NCBI RefSeq assembly: GCF_016026235.1
Contig: NZ_CP065613.1
Length of the DNA stretch: 64,000 nt
Source: Escherichia coli
GTDB lineage: Bacteria; Pseudomonadota; Gammaproteobacteria; Enterobacterales; Enterobacteriaceae
Reading direction: 5' to 3' (one strand)
The stretch's first letter is position 1. Every line of letters starts with the position of its first letter. The position numbers were made by a program, and so were the translations under genes. Of the stretch, positions 4,055-47,184 are shown piece after piece. The notes under the pieces are model-generated. The model searched no databases. It was not told the origin of the DNA and saw only the letters and a program-made list of their open reading frames with translations.

Positions 4055-4069
4055 GTTGGAGTCATTACC

Positions 4070-18610: not shown

Positions 18611-18829
18611 TTAACGTTCAATAATTTGCGAAACATCATCACGGTTAATTTGCATCGCGTTACCTTGCTGATCGTGATAACTCACCAGCCCGGTATCATC
18701 ATCAATTTCAGGTTTTCCATCGGTCAAAATCATACGGCCATCTTTGGTCGCCATGACGTAATCACTGGAACACCCGGAAACAGCAAACGCCAGTCCGACT
18801 GCAGAAATTATTACTGCCCATTTTTTCAT
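18611..18829 (-). CDS. ygdR: Small DUF903-type lipoprotein YgdR
   Basis: 72-aa ORF with signal peptide and lipobox (AVSGCSS); paralogous to ygdI at 46954-47184. Confidence 0.9.
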
Positions 18830-18966
18830 CCGGTTATCCTCATTTGGCCCACCTATGATAATAGTCTGTTTATAAACTGACGTTATATATCTTGAAAGCA
18901 GGAAAATCTTAAACTGTGAGGGTAACAGGAGTGAGTACGCCCTCCCGCAGGAGAGCGTACGGAGTA

Positions 18967-19680
18967 TCAGAGCGGGTTCTTTTTGTTGCGAATCAGGTTG
19001 AGGCTTTCAACCGCAATAGAGAAGAACATCGCGAAGTAGATGTAACCTTTCGGTACGTGGATGTCGAAACTTTCCAGAATCAGGGTAAAGCCCACCAGAA
19101 TCAGGAAAGAGAGCGCCAGCATTTTTACCGAAGGATGGCGTTCGACAAAATCACCAATCGAGCGCGCGGCGAACATCATCACGCCTACGGCAATCACCAC
19201 GGCTGCCATCATAATAAACAGGTGATCTGACAGACCCACAGCGGTAATCACCGAGTCGAGGCTGAAGATAATATCCAGTAGCATAATCTGCACGATAGCG
19301 CCGAGGAATGATGAAACGCGTGTTTTCAGCCCTTCTTCTTCACCTTCAATGGATTCGTGGATTTCCTTGCTGGCTTTCCAGATAAGGAACAAGCCACCCA
19401 GAAGCAGAATCAAATCACGGGCAGAAATTTCCTGACTGAATATTGTAAAAAGCGGATTTGTCAGGCGCGTAACCCAGGCGATTGATGCCAGCAGCGCCAG
19501 ACGCATAACCATGGCTCCCGCCAACCCCAGACGGCGCGCATGAGCACGTTGTGCTGTGGGAAGCTTTGCCACCACCAGAGAAAGGAAAATAATATTGTCG
19601 ATCCCAAGAACGATCTCCAGCAGCGTCAGCGTACCGAGCGCAAGCCAGGCGTTAGGATCGGTTATCCATGCAAATAACAT
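18967..19680 (-). CDS. ygdQ: TerC/UPF0053-family inner membrane protein YgdQ
   Basis: 237-aa polytopic membrane ORF. Confidence 0.9.
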
Positions 19681-19748
19681 CTAAAAAGCCCTGCCAAAAA
19701 AATGAAGCGGTAATTATATGCCCGGAAAGCGGCAGGTCAAAGCGATGG

Positions 19749-20438
19749 CTACTGGATCAGAAAATGACGGGCCAGCAGCGCACTGGTGAAATTTTTCTTC
19801 AAATAAAAGCCGCGCGGCAGCGTCAGAATCCGTTCGCCCCGGGCACCAATGGCTTCGGTAAGCGCTTTCGCATTCGCTGCTTTCGGTCGTATCTGTAAAT
19901 ACTCCCCGTGACGAGCGGTAATCCGCTCAACCTGACCGAGAACAATCATATCCATTAATTCTTCCCAGTCTTCGCGTAGCTGCCGGTCTTCCTCTTCATT
20001 CGGGCTCCACAGCAACGGTGATCCTACGCGACGCTGCGCCAGCGGGATGCTGCGCTCGCCTTCAACCGGTATCCACAGTACGCGTTTGAGTTTGTGGCGC
20101 ACGTGGCTGGTTTCCCAGGTCACCCCGCTATTGCCCGTTAACGGGGCAACACAAACGAATGTTGTTTCCAGCGGACGACCAAGACTATCCACAGGGATAG
20201 TTTTAAGTTCCACGCCCAGAGCAGCAAAATCTTGCTCAGGTTTACTCCCTGCGCTGGCACCTAGCCAGATCTCCAGTAACACGCCAATCCAGCCCTTATC
20301 GCGTTTTAAATTCTCTGGCGTAACCAGCCCGGCAAGTGCCGCCAGTTCTCCCAATGTATAACCAGAAAGTTGCTGTGCTTGCGCTAACAACTGTTCTTCA
20401 GTTTCGGGAGGAGAGAGCAGTGGGCGAGGTTGGGACAT
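19749..20438 (-). CDS. mutH: Methyl-directed mismatch repair endonuclease MutH
   Basis: 229-aa [36 protein letters not shown]... Confidence 0.95.
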
Positions 20439-20616
20439 GTCATGATACCTTGGTTAAAAAACAAACAGCAATTATGTGCCGAATATTCGCAGTGTAACTT
20501 TTTCCACATGCGTTGTTCAATTCTCTGATTTATATTGCTTTTTAGGTTACCGGTAATCGAGTTGCGCAACACTGCAACGGGTTTTCCAAATCTGGTCACT
20601 GAAAATAAACAGGATC

Positions 20617-20763
20617 TTACACCATGTTATCCACAGAAAGCTGGGATAACTGTGAAAAACCTCCACTACTGTTTCCATTTACAGCCTTGACGTGCGACGA
20701 AACTCCAGTTTTTAGTGGTTCAGTGCTTAACTTAGTGGCACATTCTGTGGATAAATACGGCAT
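20617..20763 (-). CDS. Possible small ORF (48 aa) inside the mutH-rppH intergenic region, possibly ygdT
   Basis: Internal Met of ORF 20617-20811 gives MPYLSTECATKLSTEPLKTG...; no convincing Shine-Dalgarno and it overlaps the DnaA-box cluster, so coding status is doubtful. Confidence 0.25.
   Translation of the reverse strand: MPYLSTECATKLSTEPLKTGVSSHVKAVNGNSSGGFSQLSQLSVDNMV
20627..20754. promoter_or_regulatory. DnaA-box cluster consistent with the DARS2 core
   Basis: TTATCCACA (20627-20635), inverted CTGGGATAA = TTATCCCAG (20641-20649, 5-bp spacer) and inverted TGTGGATAA (20746-20754); a further CTATCCACA at 20943-20951. Sits in the 684-bp mutH-rppH divergent intergenic region, where DARS2 has been described. 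Confidence 0.55.
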
Positions 20764-21122
20764 TGGTTGATCTTTCGCCAACCCGTAAATGAGAGGTGTG
20801 ACCTGGGTCACGAATTACTCTTTTTCATTACTCAAATTACATGTAATGCATTGACTAATAATGAATATTTTAAAATGTCTATATCGGGATTATTCAGAAT
20901 GCTCCGGGTTTTCCCGTAGTAATTCCGTAGTTCTTCACAACTCTATCCACAGAAAAGGTGAATAAAAACGGCTATCCACCCCTTCCTCTGTTTATAACTC
21001 TGCACATAACTGTGAGTTATTCAATTGTTATTAGTGTGTAATGCCCTGCAGAGAGTGGTTTACCGTCTTCCTGGAGTATGAAACAATCATTCGTATATAA
21101 AGCTTTATATTGAGGTAGTCCG

Positions 21123-21653
21123 GTGATTGATGACGATGGCTACCGCCCAAACGTAGGTATCGTGATTTGTAATCGCCAGGGGCAGGTAATGTGGGCCCGG
21201 CGATTTGGTCAGCACTCCTGGCAATTTCCGCAAGGCGGAATTAACCCCGGAGAATCCGCAGAGCAGGCGATGTACCGTGAATTGTTTGAAGAAGTAGGAT
21301 TAAGCCGCAAAGACGTTCGAATCCTTGCTTCAACGCGTAACTGGTTGCGCTACAAATTACCGAAACGTTTGGTGCGTTGGGACACGAAGCCGGTTTGTAT
21401 CGGCCAAAAACAAAAATGGTTTCTCTTGCAGCTGGTGAGCGGCGATGCAGAAATCAATATGCAAACCAGCAGTACACCAGAGTTTGACGGCTGGCGATGG
21501 GTAAGTTACTGGTATCCGGTCAGACAGGTGGTGTCATTTAAACGTGATGTCTACCGTAGGGTAATGAAAGAGTTCGCGAGTGTGGTGATGTCACTGCAGG
21601 AAAATACGCCAAAACCACAAAACGCATCTGCTTATCGACGTAAAAGAGGTTAA
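21123..21653 (+). CDS. rppH: RNA pyrophosphohydrolase (Nudix)
   Basis: 176-aa ORF, GTG start, Nudix box [23 protein letters not shown]. Confidence 0.95.
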
Positions 21654-21665
21654 GTCACGCCAATT

Positions 21666-23912
21666 ATGCTCACTCGCCTGCGCGAAATAGTCGAAAAGGT
21701 AGCCAGCGCACCACGCCTGAATGAGGCGTTAAATATTCTGGTTACCGACATCTGTCTTGCGATGGATACCGAGGTCTGTTCGGTCTACCTGGCCGATCAT
21801 GATCGACGTTGTTACTACCTGATGGCGACCCGGGGGCTGAAAAAACCACGCGGTCGCACTGTAACGCTTGCGTTTGATGAAGGGATCGTCGGCCTGGTTG
21901 GCAGGCTGGCGGAACCGATAAACCTTGCAGATGCGCAAAAGCACCCCAGCTTCAAATACATCCCCTCCGTAAAAGAAGAGCGTTTCCGCGCGTTTTTAGG
22001 CGTACCAATTATTCAACGTCGCCAGTTGCTTGGTGTACTGGTGGTACAGCAACGAGAGTTGCGCCAGTATGACGAAAGTGAAGAATCCTTCCTGGTGACG
22101 CTTGCCACCCAGATGGCAGCGATTCTTTCTCAGTCGCAGTTGACTGCCTTGTTTGGGCAATATCGCCAGACGCGAATCCGCGCATTACCGGCAGCACCTG
22201 GTGTGGCGATTGCCGAAGGCTGGCAGGATGCCACGTTACCTTTAATGGAACAGGTGTATCAGGCATCAACGCTGGATCCGGCTCTGGAACGCGAACGACT
22301 GACCGGGGCGCTGGAAGAAGCGGCAAACGAGTTTCGCCGCTACAGCAAACGCTTTGCCGCCGGTGCACAAAAAGAAACGGCGGCTATTTTCGATCTTTAC
22401 TCGCACCTGCTTTCGGACACCCGGCTGCGTCGCGAATTGTTTGCCGAGGTTGATAAAGGCTCGGTGGCAGAGTGGGCGGTAAAAACGGTCATTGAAAAAT
22501 TTGCCGAACAGTTTGCCGCGCTAAGCGATAACTATCTCAAAGAGCGCGCTGGCGATTTACGTGCGCTGGGTCAGCGATTGCTGTTTCATCTTGATGACGC
22601 TAATCAAGGGCCGAACGCCTGGCCGGAACGTTTCATTCTGGTGGCAGATGAACTGTCAGCGACAACTCTTGCTGAGCTGCCCCAGGATCGCTTAGTGGGT
22701 GTTGTCGTGCGAGATGGCGCAGCCAACTCCCATGCTGCGATCATGGTACGTGCGCTGGGGATCCCTACCGTGATGGGCGCGGATATTCAGCCTTCGGTGC
22801 TGCATCGTAGGACGCTGATCGTTGATGGCTATCGCGGTGAATTGCTGGTCGATCCGGAGCCGGTACTGCTGCAAGAATATCAGCGGCTAATTAGTGAAGA
22901 GATTGAGCTTAGCCGTCTGGCGGAAGATGACGTCAATTTACCCGCGCAGTTAAAAAGCGGTGAGCGTATAAAAGTCATGCTCAATGCTGGTTTAAGCCCG
23001 GAACATGAAGAAAAACTGGGCAGCCGTATTGATGGCATCGGTCTTTATCGCACTGAAATCCCATTCATGCTGCAAAGTGGTTTCCCGTCGGAAGAAGAAC
23101 AGGTGGCGCAGTATCAGGGGATGCTGCAAATGTTCAATGATAACCCCGTCACCTTGCGTACGCTGGATGTCGGAGCAGATAAGCAGCTGCCTTACATGCC
23201 GATCAGCGAAGAGAATCCATGCCTGGGTTGGCGTGGGATTCGCATTACGCTCGATCAGCCGGAGATCTTCTTGATCCAGGTGCGGGCGATGCTGCGTGCT
23301 AATGCCGCTACGGGCAACCTGAATATTCTGTTGCCGATGGTCACCAGCCTCGATGAAGTTGATGAAGCACGCCGCCTGATTGAACGTGCCGGACGTGAAG
23401 TCGAGGAGATGATCGGTTACGAAATTCCCAAACCACGTATCGGCATCATGCTGGAAGTGCCGTCAATGGTATTTATGCTGCCGCATCTGGCAAAGCGGGT
23501 CGATTTCATCTCTGTTGGCACCAACGATCTGACTCAATACATTCTGGCCGTTGATCGCAACAATACCCGGGTGGCGAACATTTATGACAGTCTTCATCCT
23601 GCAATGTTACGAGCTCTGGCGATGATCGCCCGGGAAGCGGAAATACATGGTATCGATCTCCGTTTGTGCGGTGAAATGGCGGGCGATCCCATGTGCGTGG
23701 CAATCCTCATTGGGCTTGGGTATCGCCATCTGTCTATGAACGGACGTTCTGTAGCGCGGGTAAAATACCTGCTGCGGCGCATTGATTTTGCCGAAGCAGA
23801 AAATCTTGCGCAGCGTAGTCTGGAAGCGCAACTGGCGACCGAAGTTCGTCATCAGGTTGCAGCCTTTATGGAGCGTCGTGGCATGGGCGGGCTGATTCGC
23901 GGAGGGTTATAG
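21666..23912 (+). CDS. ptsP: Nitrogen-PTS enzyme I (GAF domain + PEP-utilising domains)
   Basis: 748-aa ORF: N-terminal GAF domain and C-terminal enzyme I PEP-utilising domain; follows rppH by 12 bp. Confidence 0.95.
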   Translation: MLTRLREIVEKVASAPRLNEALNILVTDICLAMDTEVCSVYLADHDRRCYYLMATRGLKKPRGRTVTLAFDEGIVGLVGRLAEPINLADAQKHPSFKYIPSVKEERFRAFLGVPIIQRRQLLGVLVVQQRELRQYDESEESFLVTLATQMAAILSQSQLTALFGQYRQTRIRALPAAPGVAIAEGWQDATLPLMEQVYQASTLDPALERERLTGALEEAANEFRRYSKRFAAGAQKETAAIFDLYSHLLSDTRLRRELFAEVDKGSVAEWAVKTVIEKFAEQFAALSDNYLKERAGDLRALGQRLLFHLDDANQGPNAWPERFILVADELSATTLAELPQDRLVGVVVRDGAANSHAAIMVRALGIPTVMGADIQPSVLHRRTLIVDGYRGELLVDPEPVLLQEYQRLISEEIELSRLAEDDVNLPAQLKSGERIKVMLNAGLSPEHEEKLGSRIDGIGLYRTEIPFMLQSGFPSEEEQVAQYQGMLQMFNDNPVTLRTLDVGADKQLPYMPISEENPCLGWRGIRITLDQPEIFLIQVRAMLRANAATGNLNILLPMVTSLDEVDEARRLIERAGREVEEMIGYEIPKPRIGIMLEVPSMVFMLPHLAKRVDFISVGTNDLTQYILAVDRNNTRVANIYDSLHPAMLRALAMIAREAEIHGIDLRLCGEMAGDPMCVAILIGLGYRHLSMNGRSVARVKYLLRRIDFAEAENLAQRSLEAQLATEVRHQVAAFMERRGMGGLIRGGL

Positions 23913-24062
23913 CGCGGATCATATACATATCTTTTAACGGTATCCGGCAACCAGCCAGGTCCCCTTGTGCTATTATTCGCACCTTTGGAGCGCCTGAAAC
24001 CTGCGGCGCGCATTTCAATCGCTGTTCTCTTTCAGCGAAATAACAAGAACTTGTGGTGACAG

Positions 24063-24938
24063 ATGACCAGTAGCTATCTGCATTTTCCGGAGTTTGATCC
24101 GGTCATTTTCTCAATAGGACCCGTGGCGCTTCACTGGTACGGCCTGATGTATCTGGTGGGTTTCATTTTTGCAATGTGGCTGGCAACACGTCGGGCGAAT
24201 CGTCCGGGCAGCGGCTGGACCAAAAATGAAGTTGAAAACTTACTCTATGCGGGCTTCCTCGGCGTCTTCCTCGGGGGACGTATTGGTTATGTTCTGTTCT
24301 ACAATTTCCCGCAGTTTATGGCCGATCCGCTGTATCTGTTCCGTGTCTGGGACGGCGGCATGTCCTTCCACGGCGGCCTGATTGGCGTTATCGTGGTGAT
24401 GATTATCTTTGCCCGCCGTACTAAACGTTCCTTCTTCCAGGTTTCTGATTTTATCGCACCACTCATTCCGTTTGGTCTTGGTGCCGGGCGTCTGGGCAAC
24501 TTTATTAACGGTGAATTGTGGGGCCGCGTTGACCCGAACTTCCCGTTTGCCATGCTGTTCCCAGGCTCCCGTACAGAAGATATTTTGCTGCTGCAAACCA
24601 ACCCGCAGTGGCAATCCATTTTCGACACTTACGGTGTGCTGCCGCGCCACCCATCACAGCTTTACGAGCTGCTGCTGGAAGGTGTGGTGCTGTTTATTAT
24701 CCTCAACCTGTATATTCGTAAACCGCGGCCAATGGGAGCTGTCTCAGGCTTGTTCCTGATTGGCTACGGCGCGTTTCGCATCATTGTTGAGTTTTTCCGC
24801 CAGCCCGACGCGCAGTTTACTGGTGCCTGGGTGCAGTACATCAGCATGGGGCAAATTCTTTCCATCCCGATGATTGTCGCGGGTGTGATCATGATGGTCT
24901 GGGCATATCGTCGCAGCCCACAGCAACACGTTTCCTGA
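24063..24938 (+). CDS. lgt: Prolipoprotein diacylglyceryl transferase
   Basis: 291-aa membrane [37 protein letters not shown]... Confidence 0.95.
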
Positions 24939-24944
24939 GGAACC

Positions 24945-25739
24945 ATGAAACAGTATTTAGAACTGATGCAAAAAGTGCTCGACGAAGGCACACAGAAAAA
25001 CGACCGTACCGGAACCGGAACGCTTTCCATTTTTGGTCATCAGATGCGTTTTAACCTGCAGGATGGATTCCCGCTGGTGACAACTAAACGTTGCCACCTG
25101 CGTTCCATCATCCATGAACTGCTGTGGTTTCTGCAGGGCGACACTAACATTGCTTATCTACACGAAAACAATGTCACCATCTGGGACGAATGGGCCGATG
25201 AAAACGGCGACCTCGGGCCAGTGTATGGTAAACAGTGGCGCGCCTGGCCAACGCCAGATGGTCGTCATATTGACCAGATCACTACGGTACTGAACCAGCT
25301 GAAAAACGACCCGGATTCGCGCCGCATTATTGTTTCAGCGTGGAACGTAGGCGAACTGGATAAAATGGCGCTGGCACCGTGCCATGCATTCTTCCAGTTC
25401 TATGTGGCAGACGGCAAACTCTCTTGTCAGCTTTATCAGCGCTCCTGTGACGTCTTCCTCGGCCTGCCGTTTAACATTGCCAGCTACGCGTTACTGGTGC
25501 ATATGATGGCGCAGCAGTGCGATCTGGAAGTGGGTGATTTTGTCTGGACCGGTGGCGACACGCACCTGTACAGCAACCATATGGATCAAACTCATCTGCA
25601 ATTAAGCCGCGAACCGCGTCCGCTGCCGAAGTTGATTATCAAACGTAAACCCGAATCCATCTTCGACTACCGTTTCGAAGACTTTGAGATTGAAGGATAC
25701 GATCCACATCCGGGCATTAAAGCGCCGGTGGCTATCTAA
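24945..25739 (+). CDS. thyA: Thymidylate synthase
   Basis: 264-aa [29 protein letters not shown]..., starting 6 bp after the lgt stop. Confidence 0.95.
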
Positions 25740-25760
25740 TTACGAAACATCCTGCCAGAG

Positions 25761-25788
25761 CCGACGCCAGTGTGCGTCGGTTTTTTTT
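25761..25788 (+). terminator. Intrinsic terminator after thyA
   Basis: Hairpin CCGACGCCAGTGTGCGTCGG followed by eight T. Confidence 0.65.
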
Positions 25789-25923
25789 ACCCTCCGTTAA
25801 ATTCTTCGAGACGCCTTCCCGAAATTTTGCAACCTCCTGCAACGGCGTAAATAGTCCGGAAGATGCGCCGAAGAAATAGAAACTGGCCCTCGTCTTTTTT
25901 TCTCCTCGCTCCATACTGCCGGC

Positions 25924-26394
25924 ATGAAAACACAACGTGGTTATACGCTGATTGAAACGCTGGTCGCGATGCTGATTTTGGTCATGCTAAGCGCAAGTGG
26001 ACTCTATGGCTGGCAATACTGGCAGCAGTCGCAACGGCTTTGGCAAACCGCCAGCCAGGCGCGGGACTATTTGCTCTATTTACGTGAAGATGCCAACTGG
26101 CATAACCGCGACCACAGTATCAGTGTTATCAGGGAGGGGACGTTATGGTGCCTTGTGAGTTCCGTTGCTGGGGCGAATACCTGTCATGGCAGTTCACCAT
26201 TGGTCTTTGTGCCACGCTGGCCCGAAGTCGAAATGAGCGACCTGACACCTTCGCTTGCTTTCTTTGGCCTACGCAATACCGCATGGGCCGGGCATATTCG
26301 CTTCAAAAACTCAACGGGCGAGTGGTGGCTGGTGGTTTCGCCGTGGGGAAGACTCCGGCTTTGTCAGCAAGGAGAAACAGAAGGATGCCTGTGA
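25924..26394 (+). CDS. ppdA: Prepilin-peptidase-dependent pseudopilin PpdA
   Basis: 156-aa ORF with a type-IV-pilin-like N-terminus ([17 protein letters not shown]). Confidence 0.9.
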
Positions 26395-26948
26395 AAGAGC
26401 AAGGTTTTTCTCTGCTGGAAGTGTTGATTGCTATGGCGATCAGTAGCGTATTGTTGCTGGGGGCTGCACGCTTTCTGCCTGCGTTACAGCGTGAAAGTTT
26501 AACGAGCACCCGTAAGCTGGCGCTGGAAGATGAAATCTGGCTGCGGGTATTTACCGTCGCGAAGCATCTCCAGAGGGCGGGTTATTGTCATGGCAGCTGT
26601 ACCGGCGAAGGGCTGGAAATTGTCGGACAGGGTGACTGTATCATTGTGCAGTGGGATGCGAACAGTAACGGTATCTGGGATCGCGAACCGGTAAAAGAGT
26701 CCGACCAGATTGGATTTCGTCTGAAGGAGCATGTGCTGGAAACGCTACGCGGTGCGACATCCTGTGAAGGTAAGGGCTGGGATAAAGTCACTAATCCGGA
26801 TGCCATCATTATCGACACTTTTCAGGTCGTACGTCAGGATGTCAGCGGCTTCTCGCCGGTGTTGACGGTTAATATGCGTGCTGCCAGTAAGTCTGAACCG
26901 CAAACCGTGGTGAATGCCAGCTATAGCGTGACAGGATTCAACCTGTGA
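26385..26948 (+). CDS. ppdB: Prepilin-peptidase-dependent pseudopilin PpdB
   Basis: 187-aa protein from the ATG at 26385 ([24 protein letters not shown]), prepilin-like N-terminus; overlaps the ppdA end. Confidence 0.85.
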
Positions 26949-27352
26949 ACCGCGAAAAGGGTGTTTCGTCACTGGCTCTGGTCCTGATGCTGCTGGTTTT
27001 GGGTAGCTTGCTATTACAAGGAATGAGCCAACAGGATCGCAGTTTTGCCTCTCGCGTGAGCATGGAAAGTCAGTCATTGCGCCGCCAGGCCATCGTTCAG
27101 TCGGCGCTGGCGTGGGGAAAAATGCACTCCTGGCAGACGCAGCCAGCAGTTCAGTGCTCGCAGTACGCTGGAACCGATGCCCGTGTTTGTTTGCGTTTAT
27201 TGGCAGATAATGAAGCCTTATTGATTGCCGGTTATGAAGGCGTTTCGTTGTGGCGAACAGGTGAAGTCATCGATGGAAACATTGGTTTTTCGCCACGCGG
27301 CTGGAGCGATTTTTGTCCGCTGAAAGAGGGGGCGTTATGTCAGCTTCCCTGA
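26945..27352 (+). CDS. ygdB: DUF2509-type protein YgdB (pseudopilin-cluster member)
   Basis: 135-aa ORF, GTG start overlapping the ppdB stop, hydrophobic N-terminus. Confidence 0.85.
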
Positions 27353-27660
27353 AGAATCAACAAGGCTTTAGCCTGCCGGAGGTAATGTTGGCGATGGTGC
27401 TGATGGTGATGATTGTCACTGCGTTATCGGGTTTCCAGCGAACATTAATGAACAGTCTTGCCAGCAGAAACCAGTACCAACAGCTCTGGCGGCATGGTTG
27501 GCAGCAAACGCAACTGCGCGCGATTTCGCCACCTGCCAACTGGCAGGTCAACCGAATGCAGACATCGCAGGCGGGATGTGTCAGCATCAGCGTTACGCTA
27601 GTTTCACCCGGGGGCAGAGAAGGCGAGATGACCCGCCTGCATTGCCCGAATCGTCAGTAG
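27337..27660 (+). CDS. ppdC: Prepilin-peptidase-dependent pseudopilin PpdC
   Basis: 107-aa protein from the ATG at 27337 ([27 protein letters not shown]), prepilin-like N-terminus. Confidence 0.8.
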
Positions 27661-27672
27661 TCAGGAGCCGCT

Positions 27673-30600
27673 ATGTTAAGGGTCTACCATTCCAATCGTC
27701 TGGACGTGCTGGAAGCGTTGATGGAGTTTATTGTCGAACGCGAACGGCTGGACGATCCTTTCGAACCAGAGATGATTCTGGTGCAAAGTACCGGTATGGC
27801 ACAGTGGCTGCAAATGACCCTGTCGCAAAAGTTTGGTATTGCGGCAAACATTGATTTTCCGCTGCCTGCGAGCTTTATCTGGGATATGTTCGTCCGGGTG
27901 TTACCGGAGATCCCCAAAGAGAGCGCCTTTAACAAACAGAGCATGAGCTGGAAACTGATGACTCTGCTGCCGCAATTGCTGGAGCGCGAAGACTTTACCC
28001 TGTTGCGGCATTATCTGACTGACGATAGCGACAAGCGAAAGCTGTTCCAGCTTTCCTCAAAAGCGGCGGACCTGTTTGACCAGTATCTGGTCTATCGTCC
28101 GGACTGGCTGGCACAGTGGGAAACAGGACATTTGGTTGAAGGGCTGGGAGAGGCACAGGCCTGGCAAGCGCCGTTGTGGAAGGCGCTGGTGGAATATACA
28201 CATGAACTCGGACAACCGCGTTGGCACCGCGCCAATCTCTATCAGCGCTTTATCGAAACGCTGGAGTCCGCGACGACCTGCCCGCCGGGGTTACCTTCGC
28301 GCGTCTTTATATGCGGTATTTCCGCGTTACCGCCTGTTTATCTCCAGGCGCTCCAGGCGCTGGGTAAACATATTGAAATCCATCTCCTGTTTACCAACCC
28401 CTGCCGTTATTACTGGGGCGATATTAAAGATCCTGCTTATCTGGCGAAACTGCTGACCCGTCAGCGTCGACACAGTTTTGAAGATCGCGAATTGCCGCTA
28501 TTTCGCGATAGCGAAAATGCCGGACAGCTCTTTAACAGCGATGGTGAACAGGATGTCGGCAACCCGCTGCTGGCTTCATGGGGTAAGCTTGGGCGCGACT
28601 ACATTTATCTCCTTTCTGATCTGGAGAGCAGCCAGGAGCTGGACGCTTTTGTCGATGTCACGCCAGATAACCTGCTGCATAACATTCAGTCTGACATTCT
28701 GGAACTGGAAAACCGCGCCGTTGCTGGTGTGAACATCGAAGAGTTTTCCCGTAGCGATAACAAACGCCCGCTTGATCCACTGGATAGCAGTATCACCTTC
28801 CACGTTTGCCATAGCCCGCAGCGTGAAGTTGAAGTTTTGCACGATCGCCTGCTGGCGATGCTGGAGGAAGACCCGACACTTGCTCCGCGCGACATCATCG
28901 TGATGGTGGCCGACATCGACAGCTACAGTCCGTTTATTCAGGCAGTGTTTGGTAGCGCACCTGCGGATCGTTACCTGCCTTACGCCATTTCCGACCGTCG
29001 TGCGCGGCAGTCACATCCGGTACTGGAAGCGTTTATCAGCCTGTTATCACTGCCTGACAGTCGCTTTGTGTCAGAGGATGTGCTGGCGCTGCTGGATGTG
29101 CCGGTGCTGGCGGCGCGGTTTGACATCACCGAAGAAGGGCTGCGTTATTTACGCCAGTGGGTCAACGAGTCCGGCATTCGTTGGGGCATAGATGACGACA
29201 ACGTTCGCGAGCTGGAACTCCCCGCCACCGGACAACACACCTGGCGATTTGGCCTGACGCGTATGTTGTTGGGCTACGCGATGGAGAGCGCGCAGGGCGA
29301 GTGGCAATCGGTTCTACCTTATGATGAATCGAGCGGCTTAATTGCAGAACTGGTGGGGCATCTGGCTTCACTGCTAATGCAGCTAAACATCTGGCGTCGC
29401 GGGCTGGCACAGGAGCGTCCGCTGGAAGAGTGGTTGCCGGTTTGTCGCGATATGCTCAACGCCTTCTTCCTGCCGGATGCGGAAACCGAAGCGGCGATGA
29501 CGCTGATCGAACAACAATGGCAGGCGATTATCGCCGAAGGTTTAGGTGCGCAGTATGGCGATGCGGTGCCGCTGTCACTATTGCGTGATGAACTGGCACA
29601 GCGCCTGGATCACGAACGTATCAGCCAGCGTTTTCTCGCCGGGCCTGTTAACATTTGTACTCTGATGCCAATGCGTTCAATTCCGTTCAAAGTGGTTTGC
29701 CTGCTGGGAATGAACGACGGCGTTTATCCACGTCAGCTTGCGCCATTGGGCTTTGACCTGATGAGCCAGAAACCGAAGCGTGGCGACCGTAGCCGTCGCG
29801 ATGACGACCGCTACCTGTTCCTGGAAGCGTTAATTTCCGCGCAGCAAAAACTCTATATCAGCTATATCGGGCGTTCCATTCAGGATAACAGTGAACGTTT
29901 CCCGTCGGTACTGGTGCAGGAACTGATCGACTACATCGGGCAAAGTCATTATCTACCGGGCGATGAAGCGCTCAACTGTGATGAAAGCGAGGCAAGGGTA
30001 AAAGCGCATCTTACTTGCCTCCATACCCGGATGCCGTTTGATCCACAAAACTACCAGCCAGGCGAACGACAAAGCTATGCTCGTGAATGGCTACCTGCGG
30101 CCAGCCAGGCTGGTAAAGCACATTCTGAATTTGTTCAGCCGCTGCCGTTTACCTTACCGGAAACCGTGCCGCTGGAAACGCTACAACGATTCTGGGCACA
30201 TCCGGTGCGGGCGTTCTTCCAGATGCGTTTGCAGGTGAACTTCCGTACTGAAGACAGCGAAATCCCCGACACCGAGCCATTTATTCTGGAAGGACTTAGC
30301 CGTTATCAAATCAATCAGCAGTTATTGAATGCACTGGTTGAGCAGGATGATGCCGAACGCTTGTTCCGTCGCTTCCGGGCGGCAGGGGATTTACCGTATG
30401 GCGCTTTTGGTGAAATTTTCTGGGAAACACAGTGCCAGGAGATGCAGCAGCTTGCCGACAGAGTCATTGCCTGTCGCCAGCCGGGGCAGAGTATGGAAAT
30501 TGATCTCGCCTGCAACGGTGTGCAGATAACTGGCTGGTTGCCGCAGGTGCAGCCGGATGGCTTGTTGCGCTGGCGTCCCTCTTTATTAAGTGTGGCGCAG

Positions 30601-31041: not shown

Positions 31042-31216
31042 GCGCTGTATAAAAATTGCGCAATCTATCCGCTTACTTTATGATGCGCACCAGTCACGGA
31101 CTGATGGTTATATAAACATAGGCTGACTCGTGCAGCACAAGATTAAATTCTGGCAGATGATTTGCGTTAACCTGTTGAATCTGGCCAGAAAATAAAGTTG
31201 ATTATGAGGTCCGTGA

Positions 31217-37640: not shown

Positions 37641-39466
37641 TGAAATTGCAAAAGCAATTACTGGAAGCTGTGGAGCACAAACAGCTACGCCCGCTGGATG
37701 TGCAATTTGCCCTGACCGTGGCGGGAGATGAACATCCTGCCGTCACCATCGCGGCGGCACTGTTAAGTCATGATGCCGGAGAGGGACACGTTTGTTTGCC
37801 GCTTTCACGACTGGAAAATAACGAGGCGTCGCATCCGCTGTTGGCGACCTGTGTCAGTGAAATCGGTGAGCTACAAAATTGGGAAGAATGCTTGTTGGCT
37901 TCTCAAGCGGTCAGCAGGGGAGATGAACCCACGCCGATGATCCTCTGTGGCGATCGTCTTTATTTGAATCGCATGTGGTGTAACGAGCGGACGGTAGCGC
38001 GCTTCTTCAATGAGGTGAATCATGCCATCGAGGTTGATGAAGCTCTATTGGCGCAAACCCTGGACAAACTTTTTCCAGTAAGCGATGAAATTAACTGGCA
38101 AAAAGTTGCAGCGGCAGTGGCGCTGACGCGGCGGATCTCGGTGATTTCCGGCGGCCCTGGCACCGGTAAAACGACCACCGTAGCGAAGTTGCTGGCAGCG
38201 TTAATTCAAATGGCCGACGGCGAACGCTGCCGTATCCGTCTGGCTGCACCAACGGGTAAAGCTGCCGCGCGCTTAACCGAATCTCTCGGCAAGGCTTTGC
38301 GACAGTTACCGCTGACCGATGAACAAAAGAAACGCATTCCGGAAGATGCCAGCACTTTGCACCGATTGCTGGGCGCGCAGCCGGGTAGCCAGCGTTTACG
38401 TCATCATGCCGGTAACCCGCTGCATCTTGATGTGCTGGTGGTAGATGAAGCGTCAATGATCGATCTGCCTATGATGTCGAGACTGATCGACGCCTTGCCA
38501 GATCATGCGCGAGTGATCTTTCTCGGCGATCGTGATCAACTGGCCTCGGTTGAGGCTGGGGCTGTGCTGGGCGATATCTGCGCTTATGCCAACGCGGGCT
38601 TTACCGCCGAGCGTGCCAGGCAGCTAAGCCGCCTGACGGGGACTCACGTTCCGGCAGGAACTGGCACAGAAGCGGCATCTTTGCGCGACAGTCTCTGCCT
38701 GCTGCAAAAAAGCTATCGTTTCGGCAGCGATTCTGGCATTGGTCAGTTAGCTGCGGCGATCAACCGTGGTGATAAAACGGCAGTGAAAACCGTTTTTCAG
38801 CAGGATTTTACTGATATCGAAAAACGACTTTTACAGAGCGGCGAAGATTATATTGCGATGCTTGAGGAAGCTCTTGCGGGTTACGGACGTTATCTGGATC
38901 TGCTGCAAGCGCGTGCCGAGCCGGATTTAATCATTCAGGCGTTCAATGAGTACCAGCTTTTGTGCGCCCTGCGGGAAGGGCCGTTTGGCGTGGCTGGACT
39001 GAATGAGCGAATTGAGCAGTTTATGCAACAGAAGCGCAAAATTCATCGTCATCCGCACTCTCGTTGGTACGAAGGTCGACCAGTGATGATTGCCCGTAAT
39101 GACAGCGCGCTTGGGTTGTTTAATGGCGATATCGGTATTGCGCTGGATCGCGGGCAGGGGACGCGCGTCTGGTTTGCGATGCCGGACGGCAATATTAAGT
39201 CTGTGCAACCGAGTCGCTTGCCAGAGCACGAAACTACGTGGGCGATGACGGTACATAAATCGCAGGGATCGGAGTTCGACCATGCGGCGTTGATTTTACC
39301 GAGCCAACGCACGCCGGTAGTAACGCGAGAGCTGGTATACACCGCGGTGACCCGCGCGCGTCGCCGTCTGTCGCTGTATGCCGATGAGCGTATATTAAGT
39401 GCGGCAATCGCCACTCGTACTGAGCGGCGCAGTGGTCTGGCGGCGTTGTTTAGTTCGCGGGAATAA
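37640..39466 (+). CDS. recD: Exodeoxyribonuclease V alpha subunit RecD
   Basis: 608-aa ORF with Walker [10 protein letters not shown]; start overlaps the recB stop. Confidence 0.95.
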
Positions 39467-39474
39467 ACGTAATT

Positions 39475-39515
39475 GCCGGATGCGACGCACGAGTGTTACG
39501 CCTGCCGCATCCGGC
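39475..39515. repeat. REP-like palindromic element between convergent recD and argA
   Basis: GCCGGATGCGACGCAC...GCCGCATCCGGC inverted repeat. Confidence 0.55.
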
Positions 39516-39527
39516 GATTTTCATCGC

Positions 39528-40859
39528 TTACCCTAAATCCGCCATCAACACTTTGGATTTACGCTGGTAGTTGTACAACTGCTTTTTGCTCTCGGGCAGT
39601 AAATCAATATCCACCGGGGTAAATCCACGTTCCTGGAACCAGTGAATACTGCGCGTGGTCAGCACAAACAATTTGCTTAAGCCGCTCTGCTTCGCCTGAG
39701 CGGCAATGCGTTCCAGCAGAACCTCGCCCCGTGATGAACTGCGGTAATCCGGGTGAACAGCCACACAGGCCATTTCCCCAATCTTCTCTTCCGGGAACGG
39801 ATAGAGCGCGGCGCAGGCAATAGTCGTGTTATCGCGCTGAATAATAGTGAATTTATCGATTTCCATCTCCAGCTGCTCGCGAGAACGGCGTACCAGAATA
39901 CCTTGCTGCTCCAGTGGGCGAATCAACTCCAGAATACCGCCAATATCGTTGATTGTTGCGCGACGAATCTGCTCGGCGCTTTCCATCACAATCTGCGTAC
40001 CGATACCGTCGCGTGAGAACAACTCTTGCAACAGCGCGCCATCTTCCTGATAACTGATTAAATGACAGCGACGCACGCCGCTGCGGCAGGCTTTCACTGC
40101 GCCACGCAAAAAGCGCACCGTACCGGAGTTGTAATCGCCTTTCTCTTCCTGGGCTTCTACCCGCGATTGCGCTTCGTTAGGGAAAAGTTCGGAGACAATA
40201 TCACCGTCGTCATTAGTGACGCCCTGGGAAGAGCAAAAACCAATCATCTTTTCAGCTTTCAGTTTGATGGCCAGTTGAGTAGCAATCTCTTCCGAGGTCA
40301 GATTAAAGCTCTCGCCAGTGACTGAAACAGCGACCGGCCCCATTAGCACTATTGCACTGCTGTCCAGTTGACGATGGATCGCGTCTTCATCAATCCGCCG
40401 GATACGCCCGCTATGGCAGTAATCCACGCCGTCATCGACGCCCAGCGGCTGGGCAATAATAAAATTGCCACTGACGACGTTGATATGCGCGCCCTGTAGC
40501 GGCGTGTTATTGAGACTCATCGACAGGCGAGCAGTAATATCCAGTTGCAATGTTCCCGCAGCCTGCTTCACCAGTTCCAGTGTTTTGGCGTCGGTCACAC
40601 GTATATTCTTGTGATACAGCGGTTCGTGGTGATGCGCAGCCAGATTTGCGTCGATCTGCGGACGTGCGCCATAGACCACCACCAGACGGATGCCGAGGCT
40701 GTGCAACAACCCGATATCATTAACGATACTGGAGAAATTCTCATGCTCAATGGCTTCACCGCCGAGCATGATGACAAACGTTTTTCCCCGGTGGGTATTG
40801 ATATAGGGAACCGAATGGCGGAATCCCTCGACCAGCTCGGTTTTACGTTCCTTTACCAC
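39528..40859 (-). CDS. argA: Amino-acid N-acetyltransferase (N-acetylglutamate synthase)
   Basis: 443-aa protein from the GTG at 40859 ([34 protein letters not shown]...); the longer ATG-initiated ORF to 40925 is rejected. Confidence 0.9.
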
Positions 40860-41090
40860 GGCACACCTCTTTGCATGATTATTCGAAATTATTGTATTTT
40901 TATTCTGTTTTTTCGCAGGGTGCAAGTGTAAATTTTATGCGAGAGCGACTTTTTTATCAGTAATGCCGTGAATATAAAAAGAATGTTTACCGTTTATTAG
41001 ATGACAGATTATGCGTCTTTCGCTAAAGTTTCCGATCAAATTAGTCGTTTACTTGTTACACAGCTTAGATTTCTTTTGCTCGGGAGAGGC

Positions 41091-42344
41091 ATGTCAGGAT
41101 CCAACACTGCAATCAGCCGTCGTCGTTTACTGCAAGGCGCGGGTGCCATGTGGCTATTGAGCGTAAGTCAGGTCAGTCTGGCTGCGGTCAGCCAGGTCGT
41201 GGCGGTGCGCGTCTGGCCTGCGTCCAGCTACACCCGCGTGACGGTAGAATCAAATCGTCAGCTGAAATATAAGCAGTTCGCGTTGAGTAACCCGGAACGC
41301 GTGGTGGTGGATATCGAAGATGTAAACCTGAACTCGGTACTCAAGGGGATGGCGGCACAAATTCGTGCAGACGACCCGTTCATCAAGTCGGCGCGCGTCG
41401 GGCAATTTGACCCGCAAACCGTACGGATGGTTTTTGAATTAAAGCAAAACGTAAAACCGCAGCTGTTTGCCCTTGCGCCGGTCGCCGGGTTTAAAGAGCG
41501 TCTGGTGATGGACCTCTATCCGGCCAATGCACAGGATATGCAGGACCCGCTGCTGGCGCTGCTGGAGGATTACAACAAAGGCGACCTCGAAAAGCAGGTG
41601 CCACCAGCGCAAAGTGGTCCACAACCAGGTAAAGCAGGGCGCGATCGTCCGATTGTCATTATGCTTGACCCTGGCCACGGTGGCGAAGACTCCGGTGCGG
41701 TGGGGAAATACAAAACGCGCGAAAAAGACGTGGTATTGCAAATAGCTCGCCGTCTGCGCTCTCTGATCGAGAAAGAGGGCAATATGAAGGTGTACATGAC
41801 GCGCAATGAAGACATCTTCATTCCGTTGCAAGTGCGCGTTGCAAAAGCCCAGAAACAGCGTGCTGACCTGTTTGTCTCTATCCATGCCGACGCCTTTACC
41901 AGTCGTCAGCCGAGCGGTTCCTCTGTGTTTGCGCTCTCAACCAAAGGTGCAACCAGTACTGCGGCAAAATATCTGGCACAAACCCAGAACGCCTCGGACT
42001 TGATTGGTGGCGTGAGCAAAAGCGGTGACCGCTATGTCGACCACACCATGTTCGATATGGTGCAGTCGCTGACCATTGCCGACAGCCTGAAGTTTGGTAA
42101 AGCGGTACTGAATAAGCTCGGTAAAATCAACAAGCTGCATAAAAATCAAGTTGAACAGGCCGGGTTTGCCGTACTAAAGGCACCAGATATTCCCTCCATT
42201 CTGGTCGAAACGGCGTTTATCAGTAACGTTGAGGAAGAGCGTAAACTGAAAACGGCGACCTTCCAGCAGGAAGTTGCAGAGTCTATTCTTGCAGGGATTA
42301 AAGCGTATTTTGCCGATGGAGCGACGCTGGCGAGAAGGGGATGA
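41091..42344 (+). CDS. amiC: N-acetylmuramoyl-L-alanine amidase AmiC (Tat signal peptide)
   Basis: 417-aa protein from the ATG at 41091; twin-arginine motif [10 protein letters not shown]; amidase_3 domain. Confidence 0.9.
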
Positions 42345-42417
42345 TAAAAAGGCGCTGAATGGCGCTTTTTTATAGGAGACCAGAAACAAAAAAACACCTG
42401 CTAGGGTGTTCAATAAT

Positions 42418-42494
<77 letters not shown>

Positions 42495-42528
42495 TCACCG
42501 TACTGCTTTTACTTCATCAAATTTTGAT

Positions 42529-42605
<77 letters not shown>

Positions 42606-42648
42606 TCACCGTACTGCTTTACTTCATCAAATTTTAATTGGTTGCGGG

Positions 42649-42725
<77 letters not shown>

Positions 42726-42923
42726 CGCACTATACTCCGCTCGCGTTTTCATGCAACCTTTTTTTTACCCCGATCACGGATCTGGCATGATTTTGAACAA
42801 AAACAAATCACTAAAGCCTATTTTTTGTGCAAAATTTGCGTCAGGGAGAGGCTGCTCATTTCATTAAACGCGGTGGTTTGTTATCTTCGTTGCGCCTTAT
42901 TTTTTAACCTGAAGAAGAGAACA

Positions 42924-44021
42924 ATGAAAGGACGTTGGGTAAAGTACCTTCTTATGGGCACGGTTGTGGCAATGCTTGCCGCCTGCTCTTCCAAACCAAC
43001 CGATCGCGGACAGCAATATAAAGACGGGAAATTTACCCAGCCTTTCTCTCTGGTGAACCAGCCAGATGCCGTTGGCGCGCCGATTAACGCCGGTGATTTT
43101 GCCGAGCAAATTAACCATATCCGTAATTCATCACCGCGTCTGTATGGCAACCAGAGTAATGTTTATAACGCGGTGCAAGAGTGGCTGCGCGCAGGCGGTG
43201 ATACCCGCAATATGCGCCAGTTCGGCATTGATGCCTGGCAGATGGAAGGTGCCGACAATTATGGTAACGTGCAGTTTACAGGCTATTACACGCCGGTAAT
43301 TCAGGCGCGCCATACCCGCCAGGGCGAGTTCCAGTATCCGATTTACCGTATGCCGCCAAAACGTGGTCGTCTGCCGTCTCGTGCGGAGATCTACGCGGGG
43401 GCATTGAGCGATAAATACATCCTCGCTTACAGCAACTCTCTGATGGATAATTTCATTATGGATGTGCAGGGTAGTGGGTATATCGACTTTGGTGATGGCA
43501 GTCCGCTTAACTTTTTCAGCTATGCAGGGAAAAACGGTCATGCCTATCGCAGCATTGGTAAGGTGCTGATCGACCGTGGCGAAGTGAAAAAAGAAGATAT
43601 GTCGATGCAGGCGATTCGTCACTGGGGCGAAACACACAGTGAAGCCGAGGTTCGCGAGCTGCTGGAACAGAACCCGTCTTTCGTTTTCTTTAAACCGCAA
43701 TCTTTTGCACCGGTGAAAGGGGCAAGTGCGGTGCCGCTGGTTGGCCGTGCTTCTGTTGCCTCTGATCGTTCAATTATTCCGCCAGGTACAACCTTGCTGG
43801 CAGAAGTGCCGCTGCTGGATAATAACGGCAAATTTAACGGTCAGTATGAACTGCGTCTGATGGTGGCACTGGATGTCGGTGGCGCAATCAAAGGCCAACA
43901 CTTCGATATCTATCAAGGGATCGGGCCGGAAGCCGGACACCGCGCAGGTTGGTACAACCACTATGGACGTGTCTGGGTGCTGAAAACGGCTCCGGGCGCA
44001 GGTAACGTCTTTAGCGGCTGA
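42924..44021 (+). CDS. mltA: Membrane-bound lytic murein transglycosylase A (lipoprotein)
   Basis: 365-aa protein from the ATG at 42924 (MKGRWVKYLLMGTVVAMLAACSSK, lipobox); the ORF-track extension back to 42642 reads through the tRNA genes and is rejected. Confidence 0.95.
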   Translation: MKGRWVKYLLMGTVVAMLAACSSKPTDRGQQYKDGKFTQPFSLVNQPDAVGAPINAGDFAEQINHIRNSSPRLYGNQSNVYNAVQEWLRAGGDTRNMRQFGIDAWQMEGADNYGNVQFTGYYTPVIQARHTRQGEFQYPIYRMPPKRGRLPSRAEIYAGALSDKYILAYSNSLMDNFIMDVQGSGYIDFGDGSPLNFFSYAGKNGHAYRSIGKVLIDRGEVKKEDMSMQAIRHWGETHSEAEVRELLEQNPSFVFFKPQSFAPVKGASAVPLVGRASVASDRSIIPPGTTLLAEVPLLDNNGKFNGQYELRLMVALDVGGAIKGQHFDIYQGIGPEAGHRAGWYNHYGRVWVLKTAPGAGNVFSG

Positions 44022-44108
44022 TGTGATATTCTGTATGCCGTTTTTACGGATATGACAGGGTGAGGGATAACCTCACATCCTGATTATTGACTAAGTGCGC
44101 GTTGTTCA

Positions 44109-44207
44109 TGCCGGATGCGGCGTGAACGCCTTATCCAGCCTACAAATCATGCAAATCCAAAATATTGCAGGAGTTATGTAGGCCTGATAAGCGTAGCGCA
44201 TCAGGCA
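44109..44207. repeat. BIME-like pair of inverted REP elements
   Basis: GCCGGATGCGGCGTGAACGCCTTATCCAGCCTACA and TGTAGGCCTGATAAGCGTAGCGCATCAGGCA in opposite orientation; the segment is flanked by an 18-bp direct repeat (44057-44074 and 44219-44236). Confidence 0.6.
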
Positions 44208-44259
44208 TTTATGCGTTTAGGGTGAGGGATAACCTCGCCCTTTTTAATTCTGAGGTGCT

Positions 44260-45066
44260 ATGTCTGTGGTAATTAGTGATGCATGGCGTCAGCGTTTTGG
44301 TGGCACAGCGCGTCTGTATGGTGAAAAAGCGTTGCAACTGTTTGCTGACGCGCATATTTGTGTGGTCGGTATTGGCGGTGTCGGTTCCTGGGCGGCGGAA
44401 GCGCTGGCGCGCACGGGGATTGGCGCAATCACGCTTATCGATATGGATGATGTGTGCGTCACCAATACCAATCGGCAAATTCATGCCCTGCGCGATAACG
44501 TTGGGCTGGCAAAAGCGGAAGTTATGGCGGAGCGTATTCGCCAGATTAACCCGGAGTGCCGTGTAACGGTGGTGGATGATTTCGTGACGCCGGATAACGT
44601 AGCGCAGTATATGAGCGTGGGTTATTCGTACGTGATTGATGCCATTGATAGTGTACGGCCCAAAGCGGCGCTGATTGCTTATTGTCGGCGCAATAAAATC
44701 CCACTGGTCACAACCGGTGGCGCGGGTGGGCAAATTGACCCGACGCAGATTCAGGTTACCGATCTGGCGAAAACGATTCAGGACCCGCTGGCGGCGAAGT
44801 TGCGTGAGCGCCTGAAAAGCGATTTTGGCGTAGTGAAAAACAGTAAAGGTAAGCTCGGCGTGGATTGCGTGTTCTCTACCGAAGCATTGGTGTATCCGCA
44901 GTCAGATGGTACGGTTTGTGCGATGAAAGCCACGGCGGAAGGGCCAAAGCGGATGGATTGTGCATCTGGATTTGGCGCGGCAACGATGGTGACCGCCACC
45001 TTTGGTTTTGTTGCGGTTTCTCATGCGCTGAAGAAGATGATGGCGAAAGCGGCGCGTCAGGGGTAA
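44260..45066 (+). CDS. tcdA: tRNA threonylcarbamoyladenosine dehydratase (E1-like, ThiF/MoeB fold)
   Basis: 268-aa ORF with nucleotide-binding motif VVGIGGVGSWAAEALAR. Confidence 0.9.
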   Translation: MSVVISDAWRQRFGGTARLYGEKALQLFADAHICVVGIGGVGSWAAEALARTGIGAITLIDMDDVCVTNTNRQIHALRDNVGLAKAEVMAERIRQINPECRVTVVDDFVTPDNVAQYMSVGYSYVIDAIDSVRPKAALIAYCRRNKIPLVTTGGAGGQIDPTQIQVTDLAKTIQDPLAAKLRERLKSDFGVVKNSKGKLGVDCVFSTEALVYPQSDGTVCAMKATAEGPKRMDCASGFGAATMVTATFGFVAVSHALKKMMAKAARQG

Positions 45067-45075
45067 ACAATCAGG

Positions 45076-45104
45076 TCGGATGCGACGCAAACGTCTTATC
45101 CGAC
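45076..45104. repeat. REP-like element after tcdA
   Basis: GTCGGATGCGACGCAAACGTCTTATCCGAC palindromic unit. Confidence 0.5.
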
Positions 45105-45116
45105 CCGGTTCTGTGC

Positions 45117-45560
45117 TTAAACCTGCTTCGTCGCAGCGATAATCGCCTCGCTTAACGCATTTAACCCCTGGCTGCGTGAGGCGCTAAGTTGCGCACGCAA
45201 TCCCAGCTCATCAAACAATGCCAGCGGCGACTGTGCCTGCAATTCGGCGGCGGTTTTCCCCTCAACGGCAGTCAACAGCACCGCCAGCAGGCCGCGCACT
45301 ATACGTCCTTCGCTGTCGCCAAAGAAGTGCATTTTACCGTTTTCAGCCACGGTATATCCCAGCCAGACGCGGTTTTCGCATCCGGCAATCTCTTTAGCCT
45401 GCGCTTTTAACTCGTCTGGCAAAGCCGGAAGCTGTTTCCCCAGCATGATCAACTGGCGATATTTATCTTCCCATTGCGTCAACGGTGCGAAGGTATTGCG
45501 TAACGTTTCTGCGGTTACGGTTGTGCCGAACGGATGTCCGGCGAATTGCGGGTTTGTCAT
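45117..45560 (-). CDS. csdE: Sulfur acceptor protein CsdE (SufE-like)
   Basis: 147-aa ORF immediately downstream of csdA on the same strand. Confidence 0.9.
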
Positions 45561-46765
45561 TAATCCACCAATAATTCCAGCGCGCGGTCAACGGCATTCA
45601 CCAGCGCATCCACATCACTCTTTGTATTATATGGCGCAAAAGAGGCGCGCAGTGTGCCGGTTACGCCTAATTCTGCCAGTAGCGGCTGAGCGCAATGTTG
45701 CCCGGCCCGCAAGGCAATACCGTACTCCGCCAGCAGCGTCACCATATCGCTGTGATGAACGCCAGCAAAATCAAAGGCCAGCTGGCTGGAATCCTGACAG
45801 CGGAATGAACGGAAGCCTGGACGTTTCGCCAGCGCATCTTCCGCCAGTGTTGCTAAACTACGGCTCCAGCTTTCGGCCTGGTTGATATCGTAATCTGCCA
45901 GCCATTCCAGCGCCGCGCTTAATCCTATGACACCAGCCACATTTGGCGTTCCTGCTTCCAGTTTCCACGGCGCAGATTGAGTCGTGAATCCGTCAAAACT
46001 CACTTCGTGAATCATTTTGCCGCCACCCAGCCAGGGCGACATCGCTTCCAGCAGTTCTGATTTGCCATACAGCACGCCGATACCCGTCGGGCCATACAGT
46101 TTGTGACCAGAGAAAGCATAGAAATCGATATCCAGTTGCTGAACATCCGCGGGGAAATGCACCGCCCCCTGAGCACCATCAACCATCACCACCATCCCGG
46201 CTGAATGAGCAAAGGTAATCGCTCGCGCCAGATCCGGGCAACCGCCAGTAACGTTCGACATCTGACCCAACGCCAGAATCCGACTACGGGGAGTAATCAG
46301 TTCTGGCAACAAATCGACATCCGGCAGTCGCTGCGCATTAAGCGGCAATTTCACCACTTTGGCTCCAGTTTGTTGGGCAACCATCAGCCAGGGGACGAGG
46401 TTAGCGTGGTGTTCTGCCACGCTGACAATAATCTCATCGCCCGGTTGCAGACGCGGACGCGCATAGCATTGTGCCACCATGTTGATGGATTCAGTGGTGC
46501 CGCGCGTCCAGACGATAGTTTTATCATCCGGTGCATTCAGTAATTGCGCCACTTTCTCTCGTGCAGCTTCATAACGCGCGGTCAGGCGTTGGGCTTCGGC
46601 AAACTGGCTGCGATGGACGTTTCCGGCGCTCAGGCTGTAAAACTGTCGAGTGGCTTCAACCACGGCTTCAGGTTTAAGCGCGGTCGCGGCGCTATCGAGA
46701 TAGACGCCCGCATCCTGTAGTGCGGGAAACTGGGCGCGAAACTGCGCGGGATTAAAAACGTTCAT
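45560..46765 (-). CDS. csdA: Cysteine desulfurase CsdA (class-V aminotransferase)
   Basis: 401-aa protein from the ATG at 46765 ([32 protein letters not shown]...); PLP-lysine context [10 protein letters not shown]. Confidence 0.9.
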
Positions 46766-46953
46766 GGTACTCCTCGGCTTGATGCACCGATCGTGACGCA
46801 AAATTCACTTTGATACAAGGAGAGTGCTAACCATCAGAATTATCTGGATATCCTGGCGAAGCCGCGTAAGTAACATATGCTGAATAGTGTTAGGCGTTAA
46901 TTTTAGCCTGTTAATCAATACTATTAAGATTTATTAATCGCTTTAAGGAGAAG

Positions 46954-47184
46954 ATGATGAAAAAGACTGCCGCAATTATTTCTGCCTGTATGCTGACTTT
47001 TGCCCTGAGCGCCTGTTCCGGTTCGAACTATGTGATGCACACCAATGACGGACGTACCATCGTCTCTGACGGCAAACCACAGACTGATAACGATACCGGT
47101 ATGATTTCGTATAAAGACGCTAATGGCAACAAACAGCAGATCAACCGTACTGACGTGAAAGAGATGGTCGAACTGGATCAGTAA
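46954..47184 (+). CDS. ygdI: Small DUF903-type lipoprotein YgdI
   Basis: 75/76-aa [26 protein letters not shown]; paralogue of ygdR. Confidence 0.85.

Follow-up and report, generated by a model that had tools for sequence, protein, structure and literature searches.

Two intact paralogous lipoprotein genes, ygdR and ygdI, on an Escherichia coli chromosome and an IS4 insertion in the ygdR terminator

We analyzed a 64,000-nucleotide stretch of the Escherichia coli chromosome (contig NZ_CP065613.1 of assembly GCF_016026235.1; hereafter, the window) for two genes that encode very small lipoproteins, ygdR and ygdI, and for an insertion sequence, IS4, that lies beside the first of them. The ygdR coding sequence occupies positions 18611-18829 on the minus strand and encodes 72 amino acids, and that of ygdI occupies positions 46957-47184 on the plus strand and encodes 75 amino acids. 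Their start codons are 28,127 nucleotides (nt) apart. These coordinates and the list of open reading frames (ORFs) agree with the first-pass annotation of this DNA, which had described a 72- and a 75-amino acid ORF on opposite strands, 28 kb apart. The ygdI ORF opens with two consecutive ATG codons, the first of which (46954) would yield 76 amino acids and the second (46957) 75. The second is the RefSeq start and is better spaced, lying 6 nt from an AAGGAG Shine-Dalgarno sequence versus 3 nt for the first. Upstream of ygdR, the ygdQ-ygdR intergenic region (18830-18966, minus strand) contains a GAGGA ribosome binding site and presumably the ygdR promoter, and is free of IS4 sequence. A tblastn search of the window found no third copy of the DUF903 family to which, as described below, both proteins belong.

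The window is colinear with the genome of E. coli VR50, with 98.9% identity over 48.9 kb, and in the RefSeq annotation of VR50 ygdR is flanked by ygdQ and tas, and ygdI by gcvA and csdA. Gene order in the window, mutH-ygdQ-ygdR-tas at one locus and gcvA-GcvB-ygdI next to csdA at the other, identifies both genes by position as orthologs of ygdR and ygdI of E. coli K-12. The ygdR product is labeled WP_000758655.1 in colinear E. coli genomes, and the YgdR protein is identical across the five E. coli genomes that we compared. YgdI of VR50 (17900-18127 in that genome) differs from YgdI of the window by one substitution, A16S, in the signal peptide.

YgdR and YgdI aligned end to end in BLASTP, with 43 identities over 72 positions (60%) and an E value of 1e-31. 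The first-pass annotation had proposed that the two are paralogs with a common core motif and had suggested pairwise alignment as a check, since likeness confined to the signal peptide would speak against this relationship. Such confinement was clearly absent: in the mature parts alone, 31 of 53 residues are identical, which corresponds to a z score of 17.9 relative to 2000 shuffled sequences, all of which scored lower. The motif DG(R/K)..DGKP..D..TG...Y.D..GN..QINR..V was found in both proteins. A profile search, another check suggested, placed both far above the cut-offs of two hidden Markov models. Against PF06004 (DUF903; cut-off 27 bits), YgdR scored 85.9 bits and YgdI 83.9 bits; against NF033216 (lipo_YgdI_YgdR; cut-off 42 bits), they scored 105.9 and 113.2 bits, respectively, and covered the full model (1-71), so that both belong to the YgdI/YgdR family by whole-protein score. 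No other Pfam or NCBIfam model matched either protein at E <= 0.01. PF06004, NF033216, and the VR50 annotation thus all support the names ygdR and ygdI and the DUF903 lipoprotein type that had been assigned from the sequence.

The architecture that the two proteins had been proposed to share, namely a signal peptide, a lipobox cysteine, and the core, was also borne out, and the signal peptide is of the Sec type in both. In YgdR, residues 1-19 form the signal peptide, which leads into a V-S-G-C lipobox (...AFAVSG-C-SS) with Cys20 encoded at 18770-18772; YgdI has an L-S-A-C lipobox (...FALSA-C-SGS) with Cys20 encoded at 47014-47016. In both, this cysteine is the first residue of the mature chain and is followed by serine at position +2. 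The mature chains, of 53 residues in YgdR and 56 in YgdI, each consist of one DUF903 barrel. We collected 168 homologs at E <= 0.001 among 1.84 billion representative proteins. Cys20 is invariant among 57 diverse homologs, in which G31, P40, and G56 each reach at least 90% conservation. Among 77 sequences, Y24, T28, D30, K39, D43, T46, G47, and Y51 are conserved at 73-83% and D53 at 68%, and serine occupies position +2 in 73%. The lipobox pattern matched 75 of 100 homologs of 60-90 amino acids. Many of the representative homologs (P0005-P0013, P0046, P0056, P0069, and P0076) are versions of YgdR or YgdI whose C-termini are frameshifted or scrambled, which are probably public assembly or sequencing errors that inflate the apparent number of clusters.

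YgdI is on a list of verified lipoproteins (PMC8767339) and served in another study as a lipoprotein of the outer membrane that passes into vesicles (PMC8284480). By established lipoprotein biology, Lgt would place diacylglycerol on Cys20 of both proteins, LspA would cut before this residue, and Lnt would then N-acylate it. The Lol system would be expected to move YgdR and YgdI to the inner leaflet of the outer membrane with the barrel facing the periplasm, a transfer predicted because residue +2 is serine and not aspartate, and so carries no retention signal. The gene for Lgt, the first lipidation enzyme for lipoproteins such as YgdI and YgdR, itself sits between the two paralogs (40144-41019 in VR50, roughly 24060-24940 in the window). 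This position is probably a coincidence; thyA, ptsP, recBCD-ptrA, amiC, and mltA likewise lie between ygdR and ygdI.

We considered how old the duplication might be. Two genes that share their length and architecture and are separated by only 28 kb of chromosome could reflect a recent segmental duplication or gene conversion within this region. However, the DNA of ygdR and ygdI is only 59% identical, with 36% identity at third codon positions (near saturation), and the same codon is used at 20 of the 43 identical residues. No DNA likeness was detected between the 1.5-kb flanks of the two genes on either side. Moreover, each gene has a separate syntenic ortholog in distant Enterobacterales. One homolog, P0011, sits after mutH and before tas-lplT and shares 66% identity with mature YgdR and 45% with YgdI; another, P0033, is divergent from csdA-csdE-tcdA-mltA and shares 69% identity with YgdI and 51% with YgdR. 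These contigs are far removed from E. coli, as MutH and Tas encoded on the P0011 contig are each 75% identical to the window proteins and CsdA on the P0033 contig is 58% identical. A recent origin is thus effectively refuted, and we give it practically no credence. Because each copy has its own positional ortholog in such far-removed Enterobacterales, the sequences indicate that the duplication is ancient and predates those splits.

The same orthologs bear on whether one of the two copies is a horizontally acquired xenolog and not a vertical paralog. The G+C contents of ygdR and ygdI (43% and 46%, against 51.5% for the window) would fit such an origin, as would the patchy distribution of the family, which has additional copies elsewhere in the genomes of other Enterobacteriaceae. 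Further paralog types do occur at unrelated loci, such as P0038, between a major facilitator superfamily transporter gene and kefF-kefC-folA, and P0026, which lies elsewhere. However, low G+C is usual for short AT-rich genes with signal peptides, both chromosomal positions are kept in distant Enterobacterales, and virtually every E. coli has both genes, with a match to the ygdR region in 5425 of 5426 genomes. We therefore regard horizontal acquisition of either copy as very unlikely.

We are confident that the best overall explanation is that the two ORFs are ygdR and ygdI of the E. coli chromosome, which encode anciently diverged, very small lipoproteins of the YgdI/YgdR (DUF903) family. They form a catalogued paralog pair, both members of which are intact, so that the initial observation is correct but ordinary. 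A few results weigh on the other side. The P0011 and P0033 contigs come from different metagenomic organisms and not from one genome that holds both copies. A scan for sigma-70 consensus sequences upstream of ygdR and ygdI gave no strong site. The gene context of four family members comprised four unrelated neighborhoods and indicated no functional partner, and the literature that we searched assigns no biochemical function, ligand, or clear phenotype to YgdI or YgdR. A role in peptide uptake was set aside for ygdR, as it would belong to the neighboring gene ygdD.

Structural data are available for both proteins, directly or through orthologs. Residues 21-72 of YgdR are identical to the protein in Protein Data Bank (PDB) entries 2JN0 and 3FIF, and the AlphaFold model of YgdR (predicted local distance difference test score, 86.7) overlays 3FIF at 0.9 Å over 52 residues. 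YgdI matches solved orthologs from Salmonella (2RA2; E value, 2.4e-29) and Klebsiella (5CAI; E value, 1.3e-27), and 2RA2 has been tied to Salmonella ygdI (PMC5437024). The fold is a compact small β-barrel of about 50 residues with Sm/Hfq-like topology, which for YgdI is seen only via the orthologs 2RA2 and 5CAI. A fold search outside the family returned only generic small barrels of the Sm/Hfq, Tudor, and SH3-like kinds and gave no functional pointer. Such a topology could suggest that YgdI and YgdR form Hfq-like rings that bind nucleic acid. Identity to Hfq and LSm proteins is only 6-19%, however, without a significant sequence match, and export followed by lipid anchoring would place both proteins in the periplasm, a compartment in which RNA is not expected. 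Solution nuclear magnetic resonance gave single chains for two members of the family (2JN0 and 2K57), and the chain count of a crystal is no evidence for a ring. We see next to no chance that these proteins act as Hfq-like rings.

The first-pass annotation had also placed ygdR next to an IS4 insertion. An IS4 element (17162-18587, minus strand) does directly adjoin the gene, and its position can be refined: it lies downstream of ygdR, in the terminator of that gene, with tas on the far side. The 1426-bp element is bounded by imperfect 18-bp terminal inverted repeats (TAATGCCAGTCAGTTAAG / CTTAACTGATCGGCATTA). Its transposase ORF (17175-18521, minus strand; ~442 amino acids) runs in the same direction as ygdR. 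Junction comparison identified a 13-bp target duplication, CAGCCGGATGCTG, with the left copy at 17149-17161 and the right copy at 18588-18600; the latter is a remnant of the ygdR terminator hairpin and lies 10 nt past the ygdR stop codon. The element thus has the features that define IS4, namely a length of ~1.4 kb, 18-bp inverted repeats, a DDE transposase, and a target duplication of 11-13 bp, and RefSeq labels the element found at this position in five E. coli genomes as "IS4-like element IS4 family transposase". IS4 lies 23 nt past the ygdR stop codon, inside the terminator hairpin, and its far end is 97 nt upstream of the ATG of tas, an aldo-keto reductase gene (16024-17064, minus strand) that lies downstream of ygdR and is now parted from it by the insertion. 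In E. coli FDAARGOS_943, in which the site is empty, the 13-mer is present as a single copy, at the top of a 10-bp hairpin that starts a few nucleotides past the ygdR stop codon and leads into a U-run. This empty-site sequence folds as an intrinsic terminator, with a 10-bp stem and then a U-tract, at -15.5 kcal/mol.

The coding sequence and the promoter side of ygdR are untouched by IS4. Inside the element, a hairpin with a U-run is present at 18506-18541, just before the transposase ATG, and ygdR transcripts now probably end at this hairpin. Any read-through from ygdR to tas is probably cut by IS4. In published acid-shock array tables, tas and ygdR have nearly equal ratios at both time points (PMC2270276), which hints at ygdR-to-tas read-through that IS4 would interrupt. 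The insertion might also have functionally damaged ygdR in this strain and left ygdI as the sole working copy, as the 10-bp terminator stem is split 10 nt past the stop codon and the loss of a 3' hairpin can destabilize an mRNA. Against such damage, IS4 left the coding sequence whole and the promoter side unaffected, and YgdR matches in full the protein of the five compared genomes, one of which has an empty site. In addition, the strong hairpin and U-run within IS4, ~70-100 nt downstream, can replace the lost terminator. We consider functional damage to ygdR improbable. An IS4 element in the ygdR terminator could still alter formation of the ygdR 3' end or expression of tas, and is of minor interest for IS4 target choice.

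IS4 is present at this site in 5 of 5426 complete E. coli genomes. The junctions of four of the five carriers were read and were identical in position and orientation; the fifth was scored by a match over the full query and not by junction reading. The flanks of the carriers diverge from those of the window by 0.65-2.1%, whereas those of the empty-site genome diverge by 0.06%. As the same insertion is found on divergent backgrounds, the simplest reading is suggested to be recurrent insertion of IS4 at a preferred target, or hotspot. The target is flanked by palindromic sequence (TAAGG...CCTTA). IS4 has strong target selectivity, which fits recurrent insertion. Our literature search on IS4 target preference returned nothing specific, only that IS4 rarely transposes.

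Published expression data link both lipoprotein genes to stress. In Salmonella, ygdI encodes a small protein under sigma-S control (PMC5437024); expression of the gene has been described as depending strongly on sigma-S and is reduced in a cpxRA mutant of Citrobacter (PMC6153362). An inhibitor of LolCDE raised ygdI 25-53 fold and ygdR 8-12 fold, and the table in that study marks ygdR as Rcs-induced on cell-wall damage (PMC5105897). Acid shock (PMC2270276) and cathelicidin treatment (PMC6737244) each raised both genes. As a best guess, YgdI and YgdR may do the same non-enzymatic job, serving as small tethered modules for binding or as adaptors that aid the envelope under stress, and their wiring to different stress regulons may be what has kept both copies in the genome. 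More specifically, we tentatively propose that the two are redundant, stress-wired periplasmic adaptor barrels, one under sigma-S/Cpx and the other under Rcs control, and, separately, that the ygdR terminator hairpin is a recurrent IS4 hotspot at which independent insertions in several E. coli lineages have each uncoupled tas from ygdR read-through. This proposal is possible and, in our judgment, rather doubtful. If it were true, redundancy would have hidden the role of these proteins, and an envelope phenotype would appear only in a double mutant, or in other species in a mutant that also lacks any third paralog.

Several other features lie in the window. The gene for the small RNA GcvB (47201-47406, minus strand; Rfam RF00022, 199 bits) lies next to ygdI, as the E. 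coli K-12 map would predict, and is convergent with it. Its terminator hairpin (47208-47229), which has an A-run beside it on the plus strand, lies 24 nt past the ygdI stop codon and may act in both directions and terminate both GcvB and ygdI transcripts. Rfam also identified the OmrA/OmrB small RNA pair (12275-12356 and 12472-12559, plus strand) and ES036 (CssrF; 44143-44185, plus strand), the latter a short match just above threshold. Three tandem tRNA-Met genes occupy 42418-42715 on the minus strand. At 3301-4069, a 769-bp copy of IS1 stands in place of ~9.7 kb that is present in E. coli KFu022 between tRNA-Gly(ccc) (2939-3012 in the window) and the 3' end of yqeF. The absent stretch contains a GH15 gene, type III secretion (ETT2) remnants, yqeI, yqeH, yqeG, and most of yqeF, and the IS1 copy marks an IS1-associated deletion.

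We finally compared these genes and the insertion with known systems. The IS4 element shares with IS4 of E. coli, the prototype of its family, the length of 1426 bp, the imperfect 18-bp repeats, the 13-bp duplication, and the ~442-amino acid transposase, and differs from the same-site copies in other genomes at 6-11 positions (0.4-0.8%). YgdI and YgdR resemble the Sm, LSm, and Hfq proteins in fold only, without a sequence relationship, and do not belong to that group. The N-terminal helix of Sm proteins is absent from both; residues 1-19 of the model form the helix of the signal peptide, which is removed. Within DUF903, the structures 2RA2 and 2RD1 (Salmonella), 5CAI (Klebsiella), 3BDU (UniProt Q6D8G1), 2RB6 (UniProt Q8EI81), and 2K57 (Pseudomonas syringae) have the same fold, at a root-mean-square deviation of 0.4-1.6 Å. 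These solved lipoproteins have the same lipobox architecture and conserved G/P/D turn residues and are 27-62% identical to YgdR; some are further paralog types that lie at other loci (e.g., beside kefF-kefC-folA) and are absent from the window. As small "y-gene" lipoproteins with solved structures and known stress regulation, YgdR and YgdI are a textbook case, and the window leaves this picture unchanged. Names, gene order, and model scores all agree that these are the same genes as those for K-12 YgdR (2JN0, 3FIF) and YgdI; the proteins show no difference from their K-12 counterparts, and the ygdR of the window is set apart by the IS4 element in its terminator.

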